A DNA stretch of 37,907 bases. Origin: a virus (lineage: Duplodnaviria > Caudoviricetes). Positions 2,911 through 37,906 of this stretch are shown piece after piece. The notes beneath the pieces are model-generated. The model saw nothing but the letters and a program-made list of their open reading frames with translations. It was not told the DNA's origin and did no database searches. How positions within the stretch are numbered: position 1 is the first letter of the stretch; the number at the start of each line of letters is the position of its first letter. Location: positions 1-37,907 of IMG/VR virus record IMGVR_UViG_3300042196_000209; one strand, written 5' to 3'. The translations under genes were made by a program, and so were the position numbers.

Positions 2911-3140
2911 CACGGAGGACGAACGAGCTCTGCGTAGAGTGCGGCGCGGCTAGGAACTGCCACACGCCGCTGAACCGCGCCACGGGCCTGTGCTGCGACG
3001 GGTTCACCGCCGCCGTCAAGCGCGTGCTCGCCAAGGACACGGAATACTGGGACGCCTGGGGCGGCTCCACGGAGGACCGCTCCACGTACAACCTGGGCGA
3101 CGGCTGTCGCCGTGTGCCCTCCAGAGGGGGCCAAGACTGA
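2907..3140 (+). CDS. Cys-rich hypothetical protein
   Basis: ATGA overlap with the polymerase stop; CVECG...CH...CCDGF. Confidence 0.6.
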   Translation: MTRRTNELCVECGAARNCHTPLNRATGLCCDGFTAAVKRVLAKDTEYWDAWGGSTEDRSTYNLGDGCRRVPSRGGQD

Positions 3141-3838
3141 TGCGAAATGTACAGGCCGACAAGTCGGCGAAGCTGATAGCCGACCTCGAGGGCGACGACT
3201 TCAGCTGCCACGCCGGGCCGCTGAGTACGCGGCTCGAGTGGCAGGAGCTGAGGCGGCGCGTGCTAAGCCTTGATACACAGGAGCACGAGCTGTACACCGT
3301 CGAGGACGGCTGGATAGAGCTGCACTCCGGCGAGCGGTTCTTCTACAGGAGCCCCACAGCGGACATGATCCACCTGTCGGACATAGCCGCGTCGCTGGGA
3401 AAGACCGCGCGCTACGCCGGACACACACACACGTTCTACTCGGTGGCAGAGCACAGCTGCCTGCTAATGAGGTGGGCGCGCCGTAACATCGTGCCCGACC
3501 GCCGGCTGCTGCGGACCATACTCATGCACGACGCGACAGAGGCGTACATCCCGGACGTGCCGAGGCCGCTGAAGCACATGGTGCCACTGTTCAGAGAGTT
3601 CGAGGGCAGCATAGAGCGGGTCATGTCGCCGAAGTTCGACCTCATCTCGCCGCACCCGGCGATCATCCGCGAGATCGACAGCCGCATACTACGCGACGAG
3701 CGCGAGCAGGCCATGAACCCGAGCGGCAACGACTGGGGCACCGACAAGCTCGAGCCCCTGGGCGTGAAGCTGCACCTCTGGCCGCCCGAGGTCGCGATAG
3801 ACAACTTCCTCGGGGACTACGCCGAGGTCGCGCCATGA
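3140..3838 (+). CDS. HD-domain hydrolase (YfbR-like 5'-deoxynucleotidase family)
   Basis: RYAGH...YSVAEHS...LMHDATEAYIPDVPRPLK...D; ATG at 3140 coupled to the upstream TGA. Confidence 0.85.
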   Translation: MRNVQADKSAKLIADLEGDDFSCHAGPLSTRLEWQELRRRVLSLDTQEHELYTVEDGWIELHSGERFFYRSPTADMIHLSDIAASLGKTARYAGHTHTFYSVAEHSCLLMRWARRNIVPDRRLLRTILMHDATEAYIPDVPRPLKHMVPLFREFEGSIERVMSPKFDLISPHPAIIREIDSRILRDEREQAMNPSGNDWGTDKLEPLGVKLHLWPPEVAIDNFLGDYAEVAP

Positions 3839-6765: not shown

Positions 6766-6945
6766 GTGCCACAGTTCGACGTGACACGGAGGGCCGACGG
6801 AGCCTGCCTGATCGTCATGACCGAGCGGTACAGTACGGTAGCGGTCGCGCACTGCCCGCCGGGGTGTCACCCCACCGAGACACAGGTCCGCGAGTGCGTG
6901 CGCGCGATGATGGGTGAGCCCGTCCATGTCGACCAGACTTGTTGA
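6766..6945 (+). CDS. Hypothetical 59-aa protein (not in the ORF track)
   Basis: GTG at 6766, MPQFDVTRRADGACLIV...DQTC, TGA at 6943-6945; fills the gap. Confidence 0.45.
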   Translation: MPQFDVTRRADGACLIVMTERYSTVAVAHCPPGCHPTETQVRECVRAMMGEPVHVDQTC

Positions 6946-7366
6946 CGCCCCGCCGCGCGGACGGCTGTTTCAGGAGGCGCTCCGGCGTCGTCCGTTCTGG
7001 ATGCTTGTCGCGTGCTGCCTTGTGAACCTGACCACGTGGGAGCAGGCGAGGCCCGTTCTGCGCAGCCTCATGCGGCACCACACCATAGGGTCGCTCGCCT
7101 CGGCCGACCCCGCCTCGATCGAGCCGTTGCTGAGGCCGCTCGGCCTCCAGCGCGTCAGGTCCGAGCGCTTGACAAGAATGGCCCGTGCTTGGTTGCACGC
7201 GAGGCCAAGGGGGTATAATGACGTGATTGGACTGCCCGGGTGTGGCAAGTACGCAGGTCACTCATGGGCAATCTTTATAGATGGCTGTCTCAATGTACAG
7301 CCCGACGACGGTAAATTAAATTGGTACTTGGACAAAATACGCAGTGAGCACGACAGAGCAGCATAG
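6926..7366 (+). CDS. MBD4-like HhH-GPD DNA glycosylase (T/U:G mismatch type)
   Basis: LFQEAL..PFWMLVACCLVN.T, LLRPLGL, HhH LPGCGKYA..S..IF, and QPDDGKLNWY matching the MBD4 catalytic HPEDHKLNKY; no Fe-S cysteine cluster. Confidence 0.85.
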   Translation: MSTRLVDAPPRGRLFQEALRRRPFWMLVACCLVNLTTWEQARPVLRSLMRHHTIGSLASADPASIEPLLRPLGLQRVRSERLTRMARAWLHARPRGYNDVIGLPGCGKYAGHSWAIFIDGCLNVQPDDGKLNWYLDKIRSEHDRAA

Positions 7367-7422
7367 GCGCTGGCGAGCTAATAACAGGGACAAGGTCGCT
7401 ACGAACTCAAGAGCCTACATAG

Positions 7423-7720
7423 CATGCCTATCCGGTTGTCGCCCAAGGAGACTAGATGATGAAGTCTGAATACGCGCCGATCACCATTGATCAGAAGCTC
7501 GGATATTTGGTTGAGGAGTGTGGCGAAGTTCTAGCGGCAGTCGGAAAGACACAGCGCTGGGGGCTTAATAGCTTCAATCCGGAGCCTGGCGCCAGCCGCG
7601 AAACAAACCGCGAATGGATATTGCGGGAGTTGGACGACCTTGAGAACGCCTGCCACCTTGTTCGCTCGGCCTTGGACGGCTCAATGGGTGGTAGCAATGG
7701 GTAACAACCGGATAGGCATG
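7423..7720. mobile_element. Non-autonomous 298-bp insertion cassette with 23-bp TIRs and an 8-bp TSD (CTACATAG)
   Basis: Left end CATGCCTATCCGGTTGTCGCCCA; right end TGGGTAACAACCGGATAGGCATG (21/23 inverted match); CTACATAG at 7415-7422 and 7721-7728. Confidence 0.88.
7456..7704 (+). CDS. MazG-like nucleotide pyrophosphohydrolase (cargo of the cassette)
   Basis: LVEECGEV...ELDDL (EExxE...ExxD); AAGGAG RBS just inside the left TIR; stop codon inside the right TIR. Confidence 0.75.
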   Translation: MMKSEYAPITIDQKLGYLVEECGEVLAAVGKTQRWGLNSFNPEPGASRETNREWILRELDDLENACHLVRSALDGSMGGSNG

Positions 7721-8078
7721 CTACATAGAGCGGCACTTCGCCCGGTACATGCTCAAGAGAACTCGGGACAGCGCACGGCTCAGGAAGCTAGATTTCAGCC
7801 TTACCGAGGAATGGATACAGGGGTACCTCGATATCGGTCGGTGCCAGGTTACAGGTCTTACCTTTGATTTTAAGGTCGGTACTGGTGCCGGCAATAATGG
7901 CCGCAATCCATACGGTCCTAGCATAGACCGAAAAGACCCATCTAAAGGCTATACTGGGGACAACTGCCAGGTCGTTTTGTGGATGTTGAATGCGGCAAAG
8001 GGGTCTTGGAGCATGGACGAAGTGATGACGCTCGCAAGAGCGTTGATCGACTCAACTAACACGTAAATAGGAGGAGAG

Positions 8079-9209
8079 ATGGGCGCATACCGCAACTCGC
8101 TGCGTGAGGAGGGTTCCAGGAAGGACCTGCTCAGGGCACTGGAGCACACGTGGCATCAGATCGACGAGCTGAATGGCGAGAGCGTCGTGCCGTCGATGGC
8201 CACAGACGTCGAGCGCTTCAACCGGGAGCTGTTGGGCTTTCCCGTGCCGACCGTGCCGACCAAGCTACGCGGCTCCGGTCGGCTCATGCGGTCGAAGCAC
8301 CTGCTCGAGGAGCTGCAGGAGTTCACCGACGCCACGACGGCGTTCGACCAGGCGGACGCCCTTGTCGACCTCGTGTACGTAGCGCTCGGCGGGCTGATCC
8401 AGATGGGCATGTGCCCCGGCGCGGCGTTCGAGGAGGTGCACCGTACGAACATGCTCAAGCGCAGGGGCGCGCAGGCGAAGCGCCCGGACAGCTGCGGCTA
8501 CGACGCCGTGAAGCCGAAGGGCTGGACCGCGCCTGACCTGAAGAAGCTGCTCCTGGTGTCCCTGGACGACGTCGACTGGCTGGCCGAGTACAGGTGGATG
8601 ACCGACGGCCCGCAGGCGGAAGTGTGCTTTCATGTGTCTGAGCCTGAGCCGATGCCAAAGCCGAAGATACTCGTACTCGGCTACGCGCGCCACGGCAAGG
8701 ACACCGTCGGCGAGATGCTTCGCGACAGGTACGGCCTGAGCTTCACTTCGAGCAGCATGTTCTGCGCAGAACGGGTGATGATGCCATACTTCCGCCGCAA
8801 GGGCAACGCGGAATTTAGGGATAAACCCGACGCTATACAGGACACGCCGCACTACCTAAACGCACAGGAGTGCTTCGAGGACCGCGCCAACCACCGCGCG
8901 GAGTGGTACGAGGCCATACGTGATTTCAACCAGCCCGACGCGACGGCGCTCGCCCGCGCTATCCTCGAGGAGCACGACGTCTACTGTGGCATCCGCAGCA
9001 AGGCCGAGCTCAGCGCGTGCCGGGTCGCGGGCGTCTTCGACGTAATCGTCTGGATCGACCGCACCGACCACCAACCGCCCGAGGACCGGTCGTCCTGCAC
9101 TGTCGAGCCGTGGATGGCCGACTACGTGATCGACAACAACGGCACGCTGGAGGACCTCGCGCTCAACGTAGAGCGACTGGCGACGAGCATGGGCCTGGAG
9201 GCTGCCTGA
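8079..9209 (+). CDS. Fusion of an all-alpha (MazG/DR2231-like) dNTP pyrophosphatase and a P-loop dNMP kinase
   Basis: N-terminal LLEELQEF...DALVDLVYVALG...EVHRTNMLK...VKPKGW; C-terminal LGYARHGKDT P-loop...DYVIDNNGTLEDL; AGGAG RBS. Confidence 0.85.
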   Translation: MGAYRNSLREEGSRKDLLRALEHTWHQIDELNGESVVPSMATDVERFNRELLGFPVPTVPTKLRGSGRLMRSKHLLEELQEFTDATTAFDQADALVDLVYVALGGLIQMGMCPGAAFEEVHRTNMLKRRGAQAKRPDSCGYDAVKPKGWTAPDLKKLLLVSLDDVDWLAEYRWMTDGPQAEVCFHVSEPEPMPKPKILVLGYARHGKDTVGEMLRDRYGLSFTSSSMFCAERVMMPYFRRKGNAEFRDKPDAIQDTPHYLNAQECFEDRANHRAEWYEAIRDFNQPDATALARAILEEHDVYCGIRSKAELSACRVAGVFDVIVWIDRTDHQPPEDRSSCTVEPWMADYVIDNNGTLEDLALNVERLATSMGLEAA

Positions 9210-9210
9210 C

Positions 9211-10035
9211 ATGTACCAGACCTACCCGAACATCGTGAGGCACATCATGGGCCCCGACGCCGTGACCGAGGTCAACACCCGCACTGGTCACGAGATCAGG
9301 ATGCTGCCGTACCCGATCGGCTTCCAGGTCGACCTGCGCTCCGACCATATACCTCTGCCCGGTAACCGGCGCGTGTTCCCGCAGACCGCGGCGGCTGAGC
9401 AGGCGTGGTTCCTCAGCGGCAAGAGGGACGTCAACTGGCTGCGCAAGTACTGCAAAATCTGGGACAAGTTCACGGAGGACGACGACGTCACGGTCGACGC
9501 GGCCTACGGCTACCGCTGGCGCAGTCACTTCGGCCGCGACCAGCTGGGCCTGGCGATCGATGCACTAGAGAAGAACCCGACGGACCGACGCGTGTTCGTG
9601 TCTGCGTGGGACCCCGCGATGGACGGTCTCGGCGCCGAGGGTCAGCGGAACGTGCCGTGCCCCGTCGGCTTCACGCTGAGCGTCGTCGAGGGCCACCTAA
9701 ACTCCGCGCTGATGATACGCTCGAGCGACGTGTTCGTCGGCCTACCGTACGACGTCATCGGCCACGCGCTGCTCATGGACGCCGTGGCCGTCAGCCTGGG
9801 CGTCAGGGGTCTCGGCTGGATGCACGTCACGCTTGCGCATCCGCACATCTACGACGTGCACTACGACATGGCCCGCGAGAGCCTGGGGAGGACCTGGGCG
9901 GAGAAGCCCGTCATGCCGAGCTGGTCGGTAGAGGAGATCGAAGCGGACCCGGACGGCTACGTCGCCAAGGTCAAGGCGCTCACCGACCGCGTGAGACCGC
10001 ACGACTTCAACCCGAAGCCGGAGGTCACCCAGTAG
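9211..10035 (+). CDS. Thymidylate synthase homologue, predicted dCMP-specific (methyl- or hydroxymethyltransferase)
   Basis: TRTG, AEQAWFLSG, AYGYRW, catalytic PC, RSSDVFVGLPYD (Asp at E. coli TS Asn177), HPHIY. Confidence 0.88.
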   Translation: MYQTYPNIVRHIMGPDAVTEVNTRTGHEIRMLPYPIGFQVDLRSDHIPLPGNRRVFPQTAAAEQAWFLSGKRDVNWLRKYCKIWDKFTEDDDVTVDAAYGYRWRSHFGRDQLGLAIDALEKNPTDRRVFVSAWDPAMDGLGAEGQRNVPCPVGFTLSVVEGHLNSALMIRSSDVFVGLPYDVIGHALLMDAVAVSLGVRGLGWMHVTLAHPHIYDVHYDMARESLGRTWAEKPVMPSWSVEEIEADPDGYVAKVKALTDRVRPHDFNPKPEVTQ

Positions 10036-10112
10036 GCGCCCGTAGCTCAACCGGATAGAGCACCGATTTCCTAGGTCGGGGGTTGCAGGTTCGAGCCCTG
10101 CCGGGCGCACCA
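10036..10112 (+). tRNA. tRNA-Arg (anticodon CCT)
   Basis: Full cloverleaf: acceptor GCGCCCG/CGGGCGC, D arm GCTC/GAGC, anticodon loop TTCCTAG, TTCGAGC T loop, encoded CCA. Confidence 0.95.
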
Positions 10113-10129
10113 ACAGGGAGGGTCACACC

Positions 10130-10588
10130 ATGATACTGGGACAGGTCACCACGGGCACGCTGGAGTGGGACCGCCGCATGTACGGCCTAGCGCTCGAGGC
10201 CGCGTCCTGGTCCAAGGACCCGGTCCGCAAGGTCGGCAGCGTGGTCGTTTCCGCGGACCGGCGCAGGATGTCGCCCGGCTACAACGGCTTCCCGCGCGGC
10301 ACCCCGGACGTCAAGCAGCACCTCATGGACGAGACGATGCGTCAGATGCTGATGGTGCACGGCGAGGTCAACTCGATCATAAACGCGGGCTTCGACGTAG
10401 AGGGCTGCACCCTCTACGCGACTAAGTACCCGTGCCACGCCTGCGCCGGCATAATGGCGAACTCCAGGATCGCGCGCCTCGTGTGCCCGGCCCCAGACTA
10501 TGACAACCCTAAGTGGGACGAGTCCTACAGGGTGGCGTCTGAGGTCCTAGCGAACGCGTCCGTGGAGGTGGACAGATGCGACTCCTGA
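10130..10588 (+). CDS. dCMP deaminase (ComEB-like, Zn-dependent)
   Basis: SKDP..KVG, GYNGFPRG, HGEVNSI, PCHAC. Confidence 0.92.
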   Translation: MILGQVTTGTLEWDRRMYGLALEAASWSKDPVRKVGSVVVSADRRRMSPGYNGFPRGTPDVKQHLMDETMRQMLMVHGEVNSIINAGFDVEGCTLYATKYPCHACAGIMANSRIARLVCPAPDYDNPKWDESYRVASEVLANASVEVDRCDS

Positions 10589-11007
10589 TGGCGGTCTCAG
10601 TCGACGGGTTCCTCTGCATCGGCCCCGACGACGACATGACCTGGACCGGGCCCGCGGACAAGACGCTGTTCCGCGCGCTGACCTCTGTCGGGGGCATATG
10701 CGCGGCCGGCTCGGCGACGTGGCGGATCATGCCGCGTCTCGAGGGCCGGCAGCTCATACCGGTCTCACGGAGCGGCTACACCCTGCACAGGCTCGAGGCC
10801 GAGCACCCGGAGGCGTGGCTCATAGGGGGACCAACGATCGCCGTGGCCGCGCTCAGGCTGGGACTCGTGACGGAGATGCACCTGTCCGTCGTGCACAGTT
10901 ACCGCCTAGGGTCGGGCGTCAGCGTCCGATGCCTGGGGGACCTGAGTCGGCCGTCGATGCAGACGCACTTCGGGGAGGACCTGACGCACCGGGTCTACCG
11001 GCGATGA
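10576..11007 (+). CDS. Dihydrofolate reductase
   Basis: MAVSVDGF...MTW...DKTLFRALT...GSATW..MPRLEGR...WLIGG. Confidence 0.82.
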   Translation: MRLLMAVSVDGFLCIGPDDDMTWTGPADKTLFRALTSVGGICAAGSATWRIMPRLEGRQLIPVSRSGYTLHRLEAEHPEAWLIGGPTIAVAALRLGLVTEMHLSVVHSYRLGSGVSVRCLGDLSRPSMQTHFGEDLTHRVYRR

Positions 11008-17551: not shown

Positions 17552-17703
17552 TGTGCAGGCTCTGCGGCTATGACCTGACGCACTGCTCATCCTGCGGTGA
17601 GCTGTGCGAGGAACTCGACGACGAGGACATATGCAGAGCCTGCCTCGACGAGGCGGAGCACGAGCGCCAGCTCAGGAGCGACTACAGCAGGAGCGTACTA
17701 TGA
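17551..17703 (+). CDS. Small Cys-rich zinc-finger protein
   Basis: CRLC...CSSC...CRAC. Confidence 0.55.
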   Translation: MCRLCGYDLTHCSSCGELCEELDDEDICRACLDEAEHERQLRSDYSRSVL

Positions 17704-18152
17704 ACGAGGCCGCCTTAGCCATCATGCTGGCCCTGTTCGGCGCCGACCGGGCCGTGGACCAGGCCCAACTTTTCTGCCTGGCCCAGAACGTCTGGTTCGA
17801 GGAGGAGCACTCCGACCCTGGGGACAGACTGGCGATAGCACACGTAGTCCTGAACCGCGTGGCCGACAGGAGGTTCCCCGACGACGTCTGCTCCGTGGTG
17901 TGGCAGAGGTACCAGTTCTCCTGGACACACGACGGCAAGCCCGATCGCGTGCTACCGGTGATCCGCAGGGACTACGTGGGCGCTTGGGTGGAGGTGGTCA
18001 AGGCCTCTTATGACGCGCTGACCGGCAGGACCGTCGACCCGACCGACGGGGCCACGCACTACCACGCATCGTACGTCAGACCCTACTGGGCCGGTGTAAT
18101 GACGCCGACCCAGGTCACATTCGGGCACGTGTTCTATAGGAGGGATAGATGA
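17700..18152 (+). CDS. SleB-like cell wall hydrolase (Hydrolase_2)
   Basis: CLAQNVWFE...VVLNRV...FPDDVCSVV.Q..QFSW...DPTDGATHYH...PYW. Confidence 0.9.
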   Translation: MNEAALAIMLALFGADRAVDQAQLFCLAQNVWFEEEHSDPGDRLAIAHVVLNRVADRRFPDDVCSVVWQRYQFSWTHDGKPDRVLPVIRRDYVGAWVEVVKASYDALTGRTVDPTDGATHYHASYVRPYWAGVMTPTQVTFGHVFYRRDR

Positions 18153-22341: not shown

Positions 22342-25300
22342 CTATACCCTGGGGAACGGTCCCGCGGGCGGCGTGAAGTTCCCACTGTACCTGCCGACGC
22401 CCTTCGTCACGCGTATCTCGTCCTGGGAGCCGTGCATCTCTCGGTTGGCTACGCTCGGGTCGTCGCCTATGACGAGCGAGGCCCCGCTAGCAGTTATATC
22501 ATAGGAGGCGGTGTGGCTGACACCCTCCTGTACGCCGTTCACGAATAGCCTGGTCACGCCGTCCCGGCGGCTGACGGCCAGGTGCCTCCAGCCGCCACCC
22601 AGTACGTTGGTCGTGCCGGTGATGAGCTGCGAGCTCGAGTGGAACCACGCGTACGTCCCGGTTATTAGCAGGAACAGCCTCCACCACCCGGTGCCGGATG
22701 TGCCGCGGGTTATGACCCCGTCGGACCCGAAGCCCGCGGTCGGGTTGACCCACGTCTCCACAGTGAAGTCGTCGGTGCCGAAGTCGAAGTCCGTCAGGGT
22801 GCCGGTCACGTTCACGCGCGCAGTGGTCGCCCCCGACAGCAGGAGGGCGGCGGTGCCGAACTTCTTCACCGCGGTGTCGAGCTCGGCCCCGGGGGTGTCG
22901 AACGTGAGGGTGTGCGCGCTCGCGCTGTCGTCCGTGGAGGTCGTGGCGCCGTCCGCTCCGTCGAGGGCGAGCAGCAGGACCGTGAAGGCCAGGAACGGGT
23001 CGACGCCCACGAGCTCGAAGAGCTGACGCGTGTAGCGTCCCCGGCCGACGGTCGCGCTGACCTGGTAAATCTGGGCCTCTACGGTCGGCACGACGGATGC
23101 CGACAGCCCGGTCGCGGTGTTGTACTCCGCGGTCGTCAGTGTCGTGGCCGGCGAGGTGAGCCCGGTCCTGGTCAGGAATGGGACGGACGCCCCGACCTCG
23201 AAGAAGTCCACGTCGTACAGCTCCGCCTGCTCGTTGAGCGGGACCGTGTCGGTGCCGTCCAGTAGCTCGCCGTTGAAGCGCGTCCTGCGGACCCAGGTCA
23301 GTGCGAGGTCGCCCCCGGGCCTGGTGGCCACTACCTGCGCGACCGAGTAGGGCATGAGGTCCTGGCCGGTGTACGCAAAGCTGGTCGTCGGCGCGTCCTC
23401 GAGGAGTGTCCCGAACGTCACCGCGCGGTGCTGCGTGGTGACGTCCAGGAGGTCGAGCGGCAGCTGCATCGCCTCTATCGGCGACACGTCGAGCAGCACC
23501 CACCGCTCCCCGGGCACGTGATCCCTGGAGTTGTCCTCGGTGCCGAGCCGACCGCGGAGCAGTCTCGACAGCCTCACTGTGCCTGGGTCCGTCTGCGTCA
23601 CGTTCACGAACTGTATGATCTCCGGCAGGCCGTCGCCGCGCACGATCGCTATGGCGTTGGCGCCGTTGAGCACCTCCAGGTCCGTGGAGGATGAGAAGTC
23701 GCCTATGCCGCGGACAACCTTCAGGTCTACCATAGAGCTCTCGTCCCAGGTCGTCGTGGTAGACGGGTCCGCCAGCGTGCCTGCCACGGTGCCCCATGTG
23801 GCCTCGACGGATGAGCCGCCGATCTCGTCGAAGCTGGAGGCCCCGTCCCGCGACCGCATCAGCGTAGCCCCGGGCCACGAGTCCTCGTAGGCGGACACCG
23901 CCCAGTAGGCCCGGCTGAACTGCTGCAGGCTCGCGTCCACGGCCCTGAGTAGCGGCAGGTCTAGCAGGTGCAGCTTGGTCGGCAGCGCGGAGGATATGAA
24001 CTGCGCGGGGTGACCGAGGCCGCCGTCCGCGGCCACGGCGCTGACGTTGGACTCGGCGTCCTCCTGGGTGGCCGTGAACTCCGTGTCCAGGTCCGCACCC
24101 AGGTCTATCCTCGAGCCGCGCAGGCGCCGTGTCTCGCCGCGAAAGTTCAGCTCGAACACGTCTGTCGGGTCCAGCCTCATGTACCTCCAGGGGAGCACGC
24201 TCTCGACCGAGACGCGCTCAGACCATGAGGTGTAGAGCCACCTCTGCGCGAGGCGCTTCGCGTCGGGCGCCAGCATTACGATCGGCAGGTCCAACGTTAC
24301 CTCGTTCCGGGAGTACTGGCTGGGCGTGGGCAGGCTGACCCGCTTGTCCGACTGTACGCCGGCCTGGTAGTCCTTGTCCTTGTCCGCGAACCTGACCGAG
24401 AAGCGGCCGGGGAGTTCCACCTCCTGCGCGCGCACCTCTTTTATGACTTCAGAGTTGCCCGCGGTCGACGCCCGGCCGAGGTAGTCCTCGTCAATCGTCA
24501 GCACAGACGCGCCGCCACGTCGGACGAAGCGCATGCGCCAGTCTGTCTCAGCGCCCTCGAACAGGTAGCCGTTTATGAGCGGCTCCAGGGCGGATCGACC
24601 CGAGGCCTGCTTGGTCAGGCTGTAGCCCAGGACAGTCTCCGAGACGAGGTCCGACACGTCGAACAGCGTGTCGTCCAGGCCCGAGCGTCGTGAGATGTCC
24701 GCGACGACGTCGCTGAGCGGCACGCCAAGGCCGACCTTGCGGCCGAGCAGTATGCGCACCACCCTGTTGGAAGCGGGGTTCGTGACGTTGACCCGGGACA
24801 GCAGTATGGAGTGGTTCCGCGGGTCGTAGCCGGCCCGTTGGTAGTTTGCCTCTGCGCCGGGGAAGGGTATCCCCAGGTCTAGTTCGTCGACGACGGCGAG
24901 GTCGTCCGTGCTTATCGTGTACACGACCCCGACCGCCGATCCGCCGCCGGCGCCGTTGCCGAACGCGAACACGCCCGAGGTCGCGTACTGCTCCTGTGAG
25001 CCGAAGCCGAGTGCGAGGTTCCTGGCTAGTACAGCGCCCGTGTCCACGTCCACCTTGACCATGCTGACGGCGTTGGACAGGATGAGCGCGTTCTCTGACG
25101 GTACGTGACACCACCCGCTTAGGTCGCCCGTGCCGGCCCAGTCCGTCCCGCCCTTCAGGTATGTGCCGACCAGGCGCTTCACTGGGTTCGCCGCGGATAG
25201 ACCGAGGGGACCGACGTTGACGCCCGCTGTCACCTCCCAGACGTCGATCTGTGAGTCGTTCTCCTGACCGACGAACAGTCGTCTGTTCACGTGGTCCTGC

Positions 25301-26430
25301 ATGACGTGGGCGCCGCGGCCTATGTCTGTGTCCAGGTGGTTGTCCTGGACGAACGCGCCAGACTCGTTCTTGTAGAGGACCACGAAGCCCCCATCGCCGA
25401 GTAGGCTCATGCCCGAGAAGACGTACACGTCCACGAAGCCCTGGCCCAGGTTCGGGTCGCCCACGCGTAGCACGCCGATGGAGACGGGTCTCGGGTAGTG
25501 CTGGAGCGTGCCCCATGACCCGAGCGCATTGGAGATGCCGAACTGCAGCCCGGTGGCCTCGAGCGTCACCGGGTCGTACTGTATCACCGGGGCGAAGTTC
25601 GGACCGCGCTGCCCCCAGACAAAGCCGTCCATGCAGTACCGCACGGCATCCGAGAACAAGTCGCCTATGCTGTTGTTCAGCACCACGGTGGACATGGAGC
25701 CCAGGGTCGACCGGCTTACGCCCGAGGCCTTGAGTATGTAGGCGTCGTCTGTGAAGGGGTCTATGTAAAAGTGGCTCTCCTGGTCCGAGCCCGTGGGCGA
25801 GCCCGGCACAACTTGCCCCGAGAGCAGGATCAACGGGTCGAACGGCGCGGTGACCTGCGAGCTGTACGCTATCTCCGCGGTGATGTTCGGTATGCGGTTG
25901 CCGAAGTTAGCCAGGGGCCACAGCTCCGCCACCAAGTAGCACATGCCGCGGTGGGCCGGGACGTTGCCCACGCCCTTGTCCGCCTCCATGAGGAAGTCTG
26001 GCTGCTGGGTCTCCGAGCCCCTGTAGAACCTGAACTTGTAGCCGCCGAAGCTCGTTGAGCCCGTCCGGTCATAGATCAGCTTGCCGTCGGCCCACAGCCT
26101 GAGCAGGTCATCTGCCTCGCCCTCGCCGAAGGACACGGCGAAGGACGCGAAGTACGAGAACGACGTTAGCGAGCTCTTCGGTGCACCGCCGCCCTTGCCG
26201 CCCTGCGTCTGTGTGCTGACCACCTCCTGAATGCCTGGGGACCATATGACGTTGCCGCTGGTGCGGGGAGTGCCATAGTGCACGAATATGGGCCCGCCGT
26301 ACGCCGACGACGTCACGCTCAGGTCGCTAAGCCTCGGCCCCACCTGCGACTGCCCCTTCGACGGGGCCAGGAGGTTCAGGACGATGCCGACGCCGATGTT
26401 GACCGCGGCCGAGACAAGTAGTGTTGCCAT
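22342..26430 (-). CDS. Central tail fibre / host-specificity protein (GTA g15-like) with C-terminal LamG domain
   Basis: GPRLSDL..TSSAYG...GNVIW, VPAHRG..Y, FGNRIPN, LLRGRLGTE, W.RRTR; C-terminal FTVETW...WRHLAV.R...LFVNG...DEIRVT. Confidence 0.88.
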   Translation of the reverse strand: MATLLVSAAVNIGVGIVLNLLAPSKGQSQVGPRLSDLSVTSSAYGGPIFVHYGTPRTSGNVIWSPGIQEVVSTQTQGGKGGGAPKSSLTSFSYFASFAVSFGEGEADDLLRLWADGKLIYDRTGSTSFGGYKFRFYRGSETQQPDFLMEADKGVGNVPAHRGMCYLVAELWPLANFGNRIPNITAEIAYSSQVTAPFDPLILLSGQVVPGSPTGSDQESHFYIDPFTDDAYILKASGVSRSTLGSMSTVVLNNSIGDLFSDAVRYCMDGFVWGQRGPNFAPVIQYDPVTLEATGLQFGISNALGSWGTLQHYPRPVSIGVLRVGDPNLGQGFVDVYVFSGMSLLGDGGFVVLYKNESGAFVQDNHLDTDIGRGAHVMQDHVNRRLFVGQENDSQIDVWEVTAGVNVGPLGLSAANPVKRLVGTYLKGGTDWAGTGDLSGWCHVPSENALILSNAVSMVKVDVDTGAVLARNLALGFGSQEQYATSGVFAFGNGAGGGSAVGVVYTISTDDLAVVDELDLGIPFPGAEANYQRAGYDPRNHSILLSRVNVTNPASNRVVRILLGRKVGLGVPLSDVVADISRRSGLDDTLFDVSDLVSETVLGYSLTKQASGRSALEPLINGYLFEGAETDWRMRFVRRGGASVLTIDEDYLGRASTAGNSEVIKEVRAQEVELPGRFSVRFADKDKDYQAGVQSDKRVSLPTPSQYSRNEVTLDLPIVMLAPDAKRLAQRWLYTSWSERVSVESVLPWRYMRLDPTDVFELNFRGETRRLRGSRIDLGADLDTEFTATQEDAESNVSAVAADGGLGHPAQFISSALPTKLHLLDLPLLRAVDASLQQFSRAYWAVSAYEDSWPGATLMRSRDGASSFDEIGGSSVEATWGTVAGTLADPSTTTTWDESSMVDLKVVRGIGDFSSSTDLEVLNGANAIAIVRGDGLPEIIQFVNVTQTDPGTVRLSRLLRGRLGTEDNSRDHVPGERWVLLDVSPIEAMQLPLDLLDVTTQHRAVTFGTLLEDAPTTSFAYTGQDLMPYSVAQVVATRPGGDLALTWVRRTRFNGELLDGTDTVPLNEQAELYDVDFFEVGASVPFLTRTGLTSPATTLTTAEYNTATGLSASVVPTVEAQIYQVSATVGRGRYTRQLFELVGVDPFLAFTVLLLALDGADGATTSTDDSASAHTLTFDTPGAELDTAVKKFGTAALLLSGATTARVNVTGTLTDFDFGTDDFTVETWVNPTAGFGSDGVITRGTSGTGWWRLFLLITGTYAWFHSSSQLITGTTNVLGGGWRHLAVSRRDGVTRLFVNGVQEGVSHTASYDITASGASLVIGDDPSVANREMHGSQDEIRVTKGVGRYSGNFTPPAGPFPRV

Positions 26431-26431
26431 G

Positions 26432-26854
26432 TCAGTCCGTCCTGAAGCTGAACACAGACACCATACTCAGCCTCCTCTCCTCGGTGAGCGCCTCCCTGAC
26501 CACCATGCGGGCGGGCAGGTACGCGTGTATCACCCACATCAGGCCGGCCGCGTCTCGCTCCAGTATGCCGACGTGGCAGGGGTGCCGCGGCTCCCTGAAT
26601 ACGGCCACCATGCCGTGGTCGGCCTCGGACCGCGGGCGCTCCGTCAGCTGGGCCCTCGCCAGCCTCAGGACGTCGGCCGGGTTCGGGCGCCGCGGGTAGT
26701 CCAGTGTATCGTACGTCGTCAGGCCAAGCGCGTGACCCACTTTTATGGGCACGCCTATGCAGTCCACGCCGAACCTGTCGCGGCCCTTGTCCCTGAACGG
26801 CACGCCGAGCCAGGTCTTCGCCTCGGCCACTATGAGGTCCTCGAGCGCGCTCAT
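26432..26854 (-). CDS. NlpC/P60 tail-tip peptidase (GTA g14-like)
   Basis: WLGVPF...GR...GVDCIG...HVGI...IHA. Confidence 0.9.
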   Translation of the reverse strand: MSALEDLIVAEAKTWLGVPFRDKGRDRFGVDCIGVPIKVGHALGLTTYDTLDYPRRPNPADVLRLARAQLTERPRSEADHGMVAVFREPRHPCHVGILERDAAGLMWVIHAYLPARMVVREALTEERRLSMVSVFSFRTD

Positions 26855-28680
26855 CCCTTTGCGTCCGGGTAGCCGTAAAGCAGGTCCTGTCCGGGCACGT
26901 ACGGCTCGCCCCTGAAGTTGTCCACGTTGTCGAACACGTCCCTGCAGTCCTCGAGCACTCTCTTCAGGCAGCCCCGGTACACGCGGCCCGTGTCTCCGAC
27001 CTCCACGTCGAAAGGCATGTCGAGGAACAGGTTCAGGTCCTGCTCTATGGTGACGCCGTCGTCCGCTGTGAAGCCCCTGATCTCCATCGCCTTGCCGGCG
27101 TTGGGGCCTGTCTCCCAGAATACAACCCCGCCGTCCAGGGCGCCGTCCGGGAAGTGGTCACGGCCGATCGTCGAGCCGCCCGAGTTCGGGGTGAGCTCGG
27201 AGACCGTGAACTTCTTGCGCGGCTCCGTGGGGTCCACGGCGACCACCTCGACGCACCTGGACCACGCCTGCTCCGCGGTGAACACCGCGCTGCCGTCTGC
27301 CGTGGTGTTGCCCACCGCGGAGTCGTACGCGGGCTGGACAGAGCCCGTGGTACCCGCGGTAGCGCACCTGTATATGCGGTCCTCGAAGTCCGGGCACAGG
27401 AGGCCCTCGAGTATCTCGCTGGATGAGAGGAACTGCGCGGTCGGCGGAGTGAAACCTGAGGTGTAAGCGGCGGCCCCTACTATGAACCTGAACTCGTCCA
27501 CGAACCCGTGCAGCGGACTGTCGTCGAACCCGGCGCTCCTGAACGCGCCGAGCCTGATGGGAGTGGTGCTGTTGAAGATGCTGCCACCGTTATTCAGCAC
27601 GGCCCCCTGTTGGACGCCGTCTACGAATAGTCTGATATCGCTCGACGCGTCCCTAGTCACGGCGACGTGGTACCACGTGTCGACGGCCCATGTGACGGCC
27701 CGTGCCATGGTCGTCACCGTTGATCCATTCAGCGAGAACGCGAACTCTATGTCGGAGCCATTACGGTTGAGCCTCCATGCTCGCTGGTTGCCTGTGTTCA
27801 AATAGTGCGAAGCAAATATCTGTAGGGTCTGCGTCAGGTCCTTGAACCTGACTTGCGCCTCGATGGTGAACTGCTGCGTGCCTATGGTGTACGCAGCGAT
27901 GTCGGGGTAGCTCACCACCGCCGCTGTGGGGTCCACGGAGCCCGATGGGGAGAACTCTATGGAGCCCGCGCCGAACTTCTTCTCGATGGTCTGCACCGCC
28001 GCCTGCGCGCCAGGTGTGGCCGTGGCCGCGTTCGGACTGTAGTCGTCTGCGTCCTCGTCAGCGTGCACGAGCAAGGTGGGCGTAAGCACACCCTCCAGCG
28101 CCGGACTGGCCCGCACGAAGTCGCCGACGACGTAGGCCGTGGACCTGAGTACAACGGGCGGCAGTATAGGGACCCCGCATCGAATGTCGCCCAGGTCCGC
28201 TCGGCACTCCGGGCTGTATAGCTCGCCTATGCTCCTTGAGTACGCCTGTGTCAGTCCGCGGAGCTCTGCGGTGAACAGCCCGCTCGGGGTGATCGTGACC
28301 TCCCCCAGCCAGCCCTTGCGCATCCTGAGCACGCCTTGCGAGAGGTCCGACCAGTTCACGGTGAAGATGTCCACCTCTGCGAAGTCGAATAGCCCGCGCC
28401 GCAGCTCGGTCTCGTCTATATCCGCGTCGTCGAGCACGCCGGTCAGGTCGAGGTTGTCGACCGCGAGCGTGTCGTCGTTCCTGATGGCCGACCTATTGTA
28501 CGAGCTGGAGGCCTTATAGGTGCTGAGGCCCTTGCCGTCTGCCAGGTCGACTGGAAGACTCACATCGTGGTCCGTGAAGTGGAAGGCCTGCCCGTCGACG
28601 CGCGTCACGCGCCAGCACGTGGCGAGCATCGTGACCTCGCCCTGCAGGTGTGTGTTTAGTGCTACGCTCGCGGACTTCAT
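26851..28680 (-). CDS. Tail hub protein (DUF2163/BR0599, GTA g13-like) with an inserted LamG domain
   Basis: CWRVTR.DG..F.FTDHD, CRADLGD.RC, GC.K....C...F.N..NFRGEPYVPG. Confidence 0.88.
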   Translation of the reverse strand: MKSASVALNTHLQGEVTMLATCWRVTRVDGQAFHFTDHDVSLPVDLADGKGLSTYKASSSYNRSAIRNDDTLAVDNLDLTGVLDDADIDETELRRGLFDFAEVDIFTVNWSDLSQGVLRMRKGWLGEVTITPSGLFTAELRGLTQAYSRSIGELYSPECRADLGDIRCGVPILPPVVLRSTAYVVGDFVRASPALEGVLTPTLLVHADEDADDYSPNAATATPGAQAAVQTIEKKFGAGSIEFSPSGSVDPTAAVVSYPDIAAYTIGTQQFTIEAQVRFKDLTQTLQIFASHYLNTGNQRAWRLNRNGSDIEFAFSLNGSTVTTMARAVTWAVDTWYHVAVTRDASSDIRLFVDGVQQGAVLNNGGSIFNSTTPIRLGAFRSAGFDDSPLHGFVDEFRFIVGAAAYTSGFTPPTAQFLSSSEILEGLLCPDFEDRIYRCATAGTTGSVQPAYDSAVGNTTADGSAVFTAEQAWSRCVEVVAVDPTEPRKKFTVSELTPNSGGSTIGRDHFPDGALDGGVVFWETGPNAGKAMEIRGFTADDGVTIEQDLNLFLDMPFDVEVGDTGRVYRGCLKRVLEDCRDVFDNVDNFRGEPYVPGQDLLYGYPDAKG

Positions 28681-36622: not shown

Positions 36623-37906
36623 TCAGTCGCTCGGGCTGGAGGAGGCGTCGGTGAGGGCACCGACCTCGGTGAAGCCGCCGCCGGAGCCCTTGTTCGTGTG
36701 CCAGTCGACCGTTGGGCCTGAGAAGTATACCAGCGGGGTCGCGCTGAGCGGGTCCTCGCCGTTCGCGCCCAACTCTACCGGCTTGCCGCCGATCGAGATG
36801 AACTTGCGGCGGTTGGCCTCCACTGTAAAATCCAGGAACTCATTTGTGAAGTACACTTCAGCCAGGTCTCCATTCAACTTATTAGCGCCTGCAGTATCAG
36901 CACCAATACTCCAGTTTGTCTGTATCCAACGAATGATGCCGTCCAGGTTGAACGTGTCTATAAGCAGGGACTCAGCAATATCATTGATATATAGGGATCG
37001 GTCTCCAGTCTCAGAGTTCACTGATGCCAACACATGCAGCCACCCTGAGGCGGCCAGGGCTTTTGTGGTAGAACGGCCTAACCAGACGCTTGTGCCTGCG
37101 GCGTCCGTAAAGGCGACTTGCATCTCGTCGGTGCCTATCCGCTCCATAGGTCGCGCTGCGAATACTACATGGTCCAACAGCGTCGGCCCGGCATCGTCGT
37201 TGACGAAATTTACCCAGAATGAATATATGCCCTTCTTGTTATCGGTTGCGCCGTCCAAACCGGCGTCACGTGTTAGGAAATCGTTCGTACCGTCAAAATG
37301 TACGGCATTCACTACGATCTCAGCGGGGTCTGTCGGGAGAGCAATGACAGTGACGACGGTCTGTGGCGTGTTGCTGGCGTTCGTGCCGTCGGTGGCGGAG
37401 AACTCGACGGTCCTGTCACCCTCGGTCGGCGTGATCATGGTGTTCTCGTAGGTGACGGTGCGCAGCACCTCCTGGAAGCCCGCGGGCGACGCTGGACCCG
37501 TTAGGGTGAGCGTCGGCGCGGCGTATAACTTCGTGATGCCTGTGGCACCCACGTCCGCGTCGAGCAGCTCCTCGCCGGTGTCTACCAAGTCGGTGACGGT
37601 GACCGTCATGGACTCCAGTGTGGGGCTGTCGCCGTCGGACACGACGGCTGTAGCGTCCGCTATGAATACGGCGGGGTCGCCCTCAGTGAAGACCGCTGCG
37701 AAGTCCGCCCCGCCCGCCGCGCCGTTCAGGTCTATGACGGGCGCGAGTATGTCCGCCGCCTGCGAGCCGGCGATCAGGCGGCGTCGGCCGAACGGATCAA
37801 CCACGTACAGACTGATCGCGCCGTTGGACGCGCCGGCGTCCTTGACCACGTTGACCGCGCGGCCCTGCTCGACGTAGTGGCCGTCGTGTACCTCGTCCGC
37901 CTCCAG
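36623..37906 (-). CDS. Virion decoration/adhesion protein with a cadherin-like repeat and a LamG-like domain; 5' truncated by the window edge
   Basis: Frame open to the window end; PVIDLNG...FTEGD...D.DS..L...LTLTG.AS...FQ.VLR.VTY.N; AVHFDGTNDFL...WLHVL. Confidence 0.7.
   Translation of the reverse strand: MEADEVHDGHYVEQGRAVNVVKDAGASNGAISLYVVDPFGRRRLIAGSQAADILAPVIDLNGAAGGADFAAVFTEGDPAVFIADATAVVSDGDSPTLESMTVTVTDLVDTGEELLDADVGATGITKLYAAPTLTLTGPASPAGFQEVLRTVTYENTMITPTEGDRTVEFSATDGTNASNTPQTVVTVIALPTDPAEIVVNAVHFDGTNDFLTRDAGLDGATDNKKGIYSFWVNFVNDDAGPTLLDHVVFAARPMERIGTDEMQVAFTDAAGTSVWLGRSTTKALAASGWLHVLASVNSETGDRSLYINDIAESLLIDTFNLDGIIRWIQTNWSIGADTAGANKLNGDLAEVYFTNEFLDFTVEANRRKFISIGGKPVELGANGEDPLSATPLVYFSGPTVDWHTNKGSGGGFTEVGALTDASSSPSD

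Follow-up and report, generated by a model that had tools for sequence, protein, structure and literature searches.

A probable modified-cytosine module

This work concerns a module of five genes in the viral contig IMGVR_UViG_3300042196_000209 (Duplodnaviria; Caudoviricetes), which was analysed over its whole length of 37,907 nucleotides (37.9 kb; hereafter the window) and is about 64% complete. The + strand of the window carries a replication block with polymerase A, an HD hydrolase and an SNF2 helicase, followed by the module itself, in which genes for an MBD4-like DNA glycosylase, a pyrophosphatase-kinase fusion, a thymidylate synthase (TS) homologue, a deaminase and a dihydrofolate reductase (DHFR) all lie on that strand at 6926..11007, as a preliminary description had reported (Table 1); the - strand carries a siphovirus tail block. 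The gene order is retained in phages Xp12 and Donnerlittchen, hence the cluster is not a product of chance. The known module of Xp12, PaMx74 and contig B5 (Mesyanzhinovviridae, Bradleyvirinae) has the same genes, in the order glycosylase, pyrophosphatase, aspartate-type (Asp-type) TS, deaminase, DHFR and nuclease, and the window's proteins are 55% (glycosylase), 43% (pyrophosphatase), 48% (TS), 40% (deaminase) and 45% (DHFR) identical to those of Xp12. Relative to the Xp12 module, the window adds a deoxynucleoside monophosphate (dNMP) kinase fusion, an upstream HD hydrolase, a MazG/endonuclease insert and a tRNA. Judged from sequence, this Xp12-type module probably replaces cytosine with 5-methylcytosine (5mC), with the MBD4-family glycosylase repairing the 5mC that deaminates.

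Table 1. Coordinates and supporting matches of the module genes and of features close to them
Feature	Position	Strand	Evidence
HD-domain nucleotidase-like gene (YfbR-like), between polymerase and helicase	2990-3838		best PDB match Atu1052
Stand-alone MBD4-family helix-hairpin-helix (HhH) DNA glycosylase (HhH-GPD), 146 aa; predicted T:G (and U:G) mismatch glycosylase	6926..7366	+	alternative GTG start 6914
Small MazG-like nucleoside triphosphate pyrophosphohydrolase ORF, 82 aa, accessory, in low-GC insert	7456..7704	+	phrog_4856 E 9.5e-10; GC 0.55
Endonuclease VII/HNH-like ORF, 105 aa, in low-GC insert	7749..8066	+	phrog_3322 E 5.7e-27; GC 0.51
All-alpha (MazG/DR2231-like) deoxynucleoside triphosphate pyrophosphatase fused to P-loop dNMP kinase domain	8079..9209	+	PRA-PH E 2.3e-9; phrog_139 dNMP kinase E 1.4e-13
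TS homologue, Xp12 type; predicted dCMP methylase	9211..10035	+	Cys150, Asp173 (=D169), Asp181 (=N177)
tRNA-Arg(CCT), between TS and deaminase, directly after TS stop	10036..10112	+	ARAGORN
dCMP-deaminase-family protein; predicted 5mdCTP deaminase	10130..10588	+	PF00383 E 5e-18; HGE and PCxxC zinc motifs intact
DHFR, Pamexvirus/Bosavirus type	10576..11007	+	Pfam E 3.5e-5; phrog_13578 E 1.6e-41; 45% to Xp12's

The thymidylate synthase homologue and probable cytosine replacement

The TS homologue has Asp at the position where enzymes specific for deoxyuridine monophosphate (dUMP) have Asn177, as had been proposed: its motif reads RSSDVFVGLPYD, and Asp181 aligns with Asn177 of Escherichia coli ThyA, with the catalytic residues retained (Cys150 for Cys146, Asp173 for Asp169). 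Its best tblastn matches are in the Bradleyvirinae, it is 47% identical to the PaMx74 protein, and its residue is that of Xp12 at 19 of 21 checked active-site positions. The best 60 of 122 matches are all TS, and the protein is nearer to ThyA than to T4 gp42. According to a 2026 NAR paper, N177D marks the use of deoxycytidine monophosphate (dCMP), L143D/E hydroxymethylation and D169N hydroxylation (PMC13326640). Of these the window's enzyme carries N177D only, and the marks of a T4-type hydroxymethylase or a 5hodCMP synthase are absent; in particular, the L143 position is not acidic, being Asn147 when counted from the Cys (as in 86 of 89 members of the clade, and in Xp12) or Ala by MAFFT column (again as in Xp12), in a column blurred by a 5-residue insertion in the alignment.

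The DNA of Xp12 is reported to contain 100% 5mC (PMC7653180), and the mSCD preprint describes production of 5-methyldeoxycytidine (5mdC) in E. coli by the Xp12 TS and by five out of seven TS genes related to it, with genes of this type clustering with dCMP deaminases and PRA-PH genes (10.1101/2024.12.05.627091). The window TS is an orthologue of this Xp12 enzyme, which upholds the earlier 5mC assignment, and the phage very probably replaces its cytosine with 5mC. Canonical thymidylate supply, the reading given to the module genes in the AXL1 paper, is rejected in view of Asp181 and the Xp12 assay. No C5 methyltransferase was present in the 5 records searched for one.

Predicted companion enzymes of the nucleotide pool

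The kinase domain of the fusion, missing from all 20 named relatives, also has a DNMK match at E 0.0035, under the Pfam cut-off, and the pyrophosphatase has DR2231 as its best PDB match and nearest solved relative. The best PDB match of the deaminase is 7FH4, which is also given as the nearest structure to mSCD-B5 (10.1101/2024.12.05.627091). The preliminary description had the deaminase making thymidine monophosphate from 5-methyl-dCMP (5mdCMP), a step that has to be revised in the light of the one characterised deaminase of such a module: mSCD-B5 is reported to convert 5-methyl-dCTP (5mdCTP), and not 5mdCMP or dCMP, within a trait that is polyphyletic and whose diagnostic residue the preprint's account does not name (10.1101/2024.12.05.627091). 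By analogy, therefore, thymine is more likely supplied at the triphosphate level, as thymidine triphosphate (dTTP). The DHFR orthologue of AXL1 is described as functional in E. coli (PMC9206674), and the AXL1 and DLP4 members of this DHFR family have been reported to raise trimethoprim resistance.

An MBD4-type glycosylase

The resemblance of the glycosylase to MBD4, noted at the outset, was borne out by both sequence and fold. All 15 phmmer matches in the PDB are MBD4 (best E 1.5e-13), and a Foldseek search with the AlphaFold model (pLDDT 95.8) returned MBD4 at ranks 1-16, with template modelling (TM) scores of 0.81-0.84, followed by NTHL1 and Mig at 0.66; by both measures the protein is closer to MBD4 than to EndoIII, MutY, Mig or AlkA. 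In the published MBD4 structure Asp560 is catalytic, and Gln449 and Tyr540 contact the thymine (PMC3479182). These residues and Lys562 are matched by D128, Q16, Y109 and K130 of the window's enzyme, whereas MBD4 His561 is replaced by Gly; among the homologues Y109 and D128 are each conserved in 60 of 60, and Q16 in 48 of the 49 rows covering its position.

Mammalian MBD4 (PDB 1ngn, 4e9g, 6vjw) has the same short HhH fold without an Fe-S cluster, at approximately 31% identity and a TM score of 0.82. However, no methyl-CpG-binding domain was found in the 146-residue, single-domain phage protein, which is hence classed as an MBD4-type glycosylase domain rather than as MBD4, and which would have to act on DNA with its full complement of C methylated. 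Xp12 has an orthologue directly before its pyrophosphatase, annotated as hypothetical. The AXL1 orthologue, gp65, is assigned to ENDO3c, with its catalytic Asp called at low confidence, in an account of gp65 that names neither MBD4 nor T:G repair (PMC9206674).

Substitution patterns with and without the glycosylase

A tree of 32 shared genes places the non-carriers DLP4, Bosa and DoCa10 as sister to the carriers AXL1 and DoCa6, with the carriers Xp12, MET13 and FMYAK outside. Changes at four-fold sites were polarised by outgroup, with C<>G changes as the control. In three Bosavirus comparisons, which together represent one loss event, C:G>T:A changes numbered 240, 238 and 204 in the non-carriers against 57, 68 and 59 in the carriers, while the C<>G control stood at 232/212, 212/180 and 235/216. 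The corresponding gene-bootstrap odds ratios are 3.85 (2.5-6.0), 2.97 (2.0-4.3) and 3.18 (2.1-4.7), and those against other G/C>A/T changes are 2.65, 1.70 and 2.22, with all intervals above 1. The excess appears in 28, 28 and 25 of the 32 genes, in nearly all sequence contexts, and persists in structural genes alone; the same isolation strain served for AXL1 and DLP4, and a different one for both DoCa6 and DoCa10. Elanor and A1432 differ from Xp12 in the same direction (204 against 33 and 268 against 20 C:G>T:A changes). In non-carriers the C>T rate at coding-strand C is approximately double that at G and peaks in CpG; carriers show the same skews. Specificity of the excess for CpG was rejected, being significant in only 2 of 5 comparisons, and there is a mild CpG lean at most, differing from mammalian MBD4 in that the signal of the phage gene spans all contexts.

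In place of the glycosylase gene, DLP4, Bosa, DoCa10, Elanor and QDWS359 have a spacer of 70-100 bases upstream of the pyrophosphatase, in which promoter-like hexamers accompany an inverted repeat. No glycosylase remnant is to be found in this hairpin- and promoter-like gap, which the Bosavirus non-carriers share with Elanor, and hence gain and loss at the Bosavirus node cannot be told apart from the DNA.

Silent-site GC across the wider clade

The wider comparison used 65 genomes from 89 units, after 23 were dropped (21 non-carrier fragments and 2 carriers with too few genes) and one, G052, was set aside; the 89 units excluded L134-L138, which are five weak TS loci, and three entries that duplicate named records. 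The median GC content at four-fold sites (GC4) is 0.92 in the 32 carriers (lowest 0.70) and 0.76 in the 33 non-carriers (highest 0.94). Carrier state is associated with GC4 by phylogenetic generalised least squares, with p from 1.5e-5 (lambda 1) to 4e-8, whereas the control traits (kinase fusion, HD gene and DHFR) do not predict it (p >0.5). The glycosylase state changes at least 11 times on this tree. The glycosylase and core trees are correlated (Mantel rho 0.55, p 0.001), as would be expected of an ancestral gene with many losses; the glycosylase therefore appears to be ancestral to the clade and to have been repeatedly lost, and lineages without it appear to drift towards A+T.

Occurrence of the glycosylase

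Among 67 glycosylase loci, which include a few duplicates and come mostly from the one clade that supplied the search patterns, Asp is present in all 34 readable TS motifs. Matches to the glycosylase occur in 13 of 50,697 phage records (8 phages), all within the 60 best TS matches. At E<=1e-10 the glycosylase family has 1,909 relatives. The co-occurrence of Asp-type TS and MBD4-like genes thus stands in one direction and is weak in the other: only 6 of 20 named Asp-TS phages carry the glycosylase, as do 17 of 63 IMG/VR TS contigs, or 7 of the 25 that are at least 90% complete. The glycosylase is optional, and is missing from most of the Asp-TS phages examined.

MBD4-like genes also occur in other settings. 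The locus L063:1488-6412, unrelated to the clade, encodes an MBD4-like protein, a DNA-ligase-like protein, a deaminase, a ThyA-like TS and DHFR; its TS has the Asp (CPHD) and keeps Leu143, and is likely an independent dCMP methylase. Two jumbo contigs (G064, G065; L020, L021, L227, L228) have an MBD4-like gene with a T4 gp42-like TS 30-40 kb away; DUF6378 and dUTPase genes follow that TS, and apparent S-adenosylmethionine-cycle genes, read by eye, adjoin the G065 glycosylase. Cyanophage S-TIM54, which encodes a C5 methyltransferase, has a hypothetical protein in which the Gln, Tyr and Asp motifs of MBD4 recur (L230:4277-4663). Fusions of MBD4-like domains were seen in 5 of 27 longer proteins scanned (P0093, P0119, P0133, P0164, P0171), the partners being a C5 DNA methyltransferase (P0093), PRA-PH with dGTP diphosphohydrolase, hydroxymethyldeoxyuridine (hmdU)-kinase helical domains (P0133, P0164) and Nmad1.

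A 36% GC phage, G052, has a Mig-like T:G mismatch glycosylase gene (L127:16929-17576; best match 1kea, E 9e-27) approximately 6 kb from an Asp-type TS, which its sequence suggests is an unrelated second way of meeting the same need. Searches of 37 records for HhH-GPD, Vsr and uracil-DNA glycosylase (UDG) genes found HhH only in the window, Xp12 and G052, with 0 Vsr and 0 UDG, on which grounds replacement repair genes of these kinds in the non-carriers searched were rejected.

Proposed pathway

The module can be read as a pathway that edits the nucleotide pool before replication and repairs the DNA afterwards. The pyrophosphatase, by its family and position, likely clears dCTP (and dUTP) from the pool, where it would have to leave 5mdCTP intact, and yields dCMP, which the Asp-type TS would methylate with methylenetetrahydrofolate, as shown for the Xp12 orthologue. 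DHFR would regenerate the folate, an activity shown for the AXL1 orthologue, and the fused kinase likely phosphorylates the 5mdCMP. The deaminase likely converts part of the resulting 5mdCTP to dTTP, as shown for mSCD-B5, and the phage polymerase A would incorporate the remainder, such that substitution precedes replication. In the resulting fully 5mC DNA, each deamination would give T, which is invisible to a uracil glycosylase. The MBD4-type enzyme would flip T opposite G into its Gln/Tyr pocket and excise it by means of Asp128, whatever the flanking sequence, after which host repair would deal with the abasic site. It would be of most use on virion DNA that has just entered the cell and has yet to be replicated. 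For the window phage itself, we infer full 5mC substitution, dCTP hydrolysis, kinase specificity and T:G excision.

Weighing the alternatives

The claim that the glycosylase repairs the T:G mismatches left by 5mC deamination gained comparative support from the C:G>T:A excess and the GC4 link, and met exceptions that weigh against it. The Bosavirus comparisons count once, with a shared-stem odds ratio of 2.5 (p 0.003). The non-carriers are also enriched 1.6-2 fold in G/C>A/T transversions. PaMx74, which has 5mC without the glycosylase, shows the opposite direction when compared with the carrier Donnerlittchen, a phage of Janthinobacterium lividum (38 C>T changes in PaMx74 against 82). High silent-site GC persists in the non-carriers PaMx74 (GC4 0.95), QDWS359 and L092, in which no other HhH, Vsr or UDG gene was found, while G052 has its Mig-like gene and yet a GC4 of 0.23. 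The 11 of 11 hand-picked sister contrasts that favour carriers, one of which reverses in the worst case, were chosen after the values were known, include three in unresolved forks and leave 15 of the 65 rows in none; independent-pair tests with thresholded GC4 give median p values of 0.06, 0.06, 0.008 and 0.008. In the enzyme, the Arg468 finger of MBD4 is Leu35 (Leu in 39 and Arg in 13 of 60 homologues) and Gly471 is Trp. MBD4 reads the opposite G through the main-chain carbonyl of Arg468 (PMC3479182), and Leu35 could keep this main-chain reading.

Uracil is also a substrate of MBD4. We regard as unlikely a module that works as described but whose glycosylase acts chiefly on uracil, or on T placed opposite G by misincorporation from an imbalanced dTTP/5mdCTP pool, and not on what 5mC decay leaves in the DNA. 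The MBD4 pocket binds T and 5-hydroxymethyluracil alike (PMC3479182), dTTP made by deamination could skew the pools, and misincorporation would predict the same C:G>T:A excess as 5mC decay. However, hosts have their own uracil glycosylases (PF03167 in 13 of 14 control genomes), a fully methylated genome gives little uracil by deamination, and the coding-strand bias and CpG peak of C>T changes fit chemical decay, though carriers share these skews. It is quite improbable that the gene is instead a bystander, kept by phages that are GC-rich or by the hosts of such phages, with population size, host shifts or recombination lowering GC in non-carriers. The high-GC non-carriers and the A/T-ward transversions would be expected from it, the DLP4 empty allele resembles that of Elanor, implying that recombination took part, and the host GC of the uncultured contigs remains a confounder. 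Yet transitions rose more than transversions with C<>G changes level, the paired phages have common isolation hosts, and three other optional genes fail to predict GC4. Import from an Elanor-like low-GC donor likewise finds no support as the cause of the DLP4 excess, DLP4 (52/216) sharing derived T/A alleles with Elanor no more often than AXL1 does (11/48).

There is also a slim chance that the phage makes another modified C, either 5-hydroxymethylcytosine (5hmC) or a further-modified 5mC, with the glycosylase acting on the deamination product of that base or working within the same pathway. Asp at 177 is common to methyl and hydroxymethyl enzymes (PMC13326640), 5mdC was obtained in the published assay from only five of the seven related TS genes (10.1101/2024.12.05.627091), MBD4-like genes accompany gp42-like TS in the two jumbo contigs, and the hmdU-kinase helical-domain fusions of P0133 and P0164 also weigh against the preferred reading. 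About a third of the genome is missing, hence a further modifying enzyme could lie outside the window. Against this, the TS is nearer to ThyA than to T4 gp42, has an Xp12-like active site and adjoins DHFR, and no dioxygenase, glycosyltransferase or carbamoyltransferase was found among the 45 window ORFs scanned. Replacement of C by 5mC, with repair of its deamination product by the MBD4-type enzyme, therefore remains the preferred explanation.

Other features of the window

A low-GC insert (approximately 7201-8070, GC 0.50-0.59) starts within the glycosylase gene and separates it from the remaining module. Its endonuclease ORF, homologues of which occupy other module positions in L009, L012 and L017, is likely a mobile homing-type endonuclease, and the insert resembles a cassette of the homing type with co-conversion. 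One depth-3 contig (run X8) lacks 7339-8041, which faintly suggests that an insert-free form exists. That the window's glycosylase gene is chimeric is only a possibility, because third-position GC also tends to be lower in the last third of the gene in other carriers.

The HD nucleotidase-like gene is present in none of the 20 named relatives and is common in contigs with the kinase fusion, and may encode a further pool-editing enzyme. AGG, the codon among the G/C-ending Arg codons without C on the coding strand, makes up approximately 25% of Arg codons in the window, compared with 4-11% in seven relatives. The window forms a deep branch of the wider Bradleyvirinae clade, with at most 49% identity to any row of the tree. 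Its tail proteins at 22342-28680 and 36623-37849 are of gene-transfer-agent type (DUF2460, BR0599, Rcc01698), which hints at an alphaproteobacterial host; three tail proteins have inserted Laminin G lectin domains, and a cell-wall hydrolase lies at 17604-18152. Among palindromes CTAG alone is depleted, which is uninformative, and a promoter and terminator scan of the window gave a signal at chance level. The sequence is present in 11 DNA sequencing runs, always as contigs, with no RNA run among those listed.

Precedents and implications

The T4 hydroxymethylcytosine pathway (gp56, gp42, gp1) has in common with this module the editing of the pool, an Asp-type TS homologue and a dNMP kinase, but differs in hydroxymethylation, in an acidic residue at the L143 position and in later glucosylation; the MBD4-like gene had no match in the T4-like records searched. 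In cells, Vsr repair is paired with Dcm, and Mig.Mth of Methanothermobacter with a methyltransferase on a plasmid. Both are likewise dedicated T:G repair systems countering 5mC deamination, and by analogy Mig.Mth, which a review describes as a T:G glycosylase in this role, is a cellular precedent for the repair logic. However, these cellular systems accompany site-specific, post-replicative methyltransferases, whereas the window's methylation is predicted to be complete and to precede replication. The enzymes differ as well: Vsr is a nuclease and Mig an Fe-S protein of the MutY family, where the window has an MBD4-type enzyme.

The pairing of 5mC substitution with MBD4-type repair had been put forward as undescribed. 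This holds in part: published accounts of the core module exist for Xp12, PaMx74 and B5, and Xp12 itself has the glycosylase, while the pairing was not found in the literature at the level of titles and abstract openings, and reviews on phage DNA modification may mention the family. The 5mC pathway is hence not new, being the Xp12/PaMx74 module; what is apparently undescribed is the evidence for the glycosylase's job and its link to mutation rate.

That all C of Xp12 is 5mC, at 68% GC, has been known for fifty years, and the literature searched states no answer to how such a genome avoids decay. A candidate anti-decay enzyme can now be named, present in Xp12 itself, together with a measurable prediction, that fixed C>T changes should be three to four times less numerous in carriers than in the non-carriers most closely related to them, and one optional gene is linked to genome GC across approximately 11 state changes. 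A 146-residue T:G glycosylase, predicted to be probably context-free, could also help to repair 5mC deamination damage in sequencing libraries. Tentatively, as a joint proposition that we hold to be a serious possibility rather than an expectation, stand-alone MBD4-type T:G glycosylases may be widespread anti-mutators in viruses with 5mC or 5hmC, their repeated losses in the Xp12-like clade may serve as natural experiments on a single gene that governs both C>T rate and GC content, and their family may be the source of the catalytic domain of eukaryotic MBD4.

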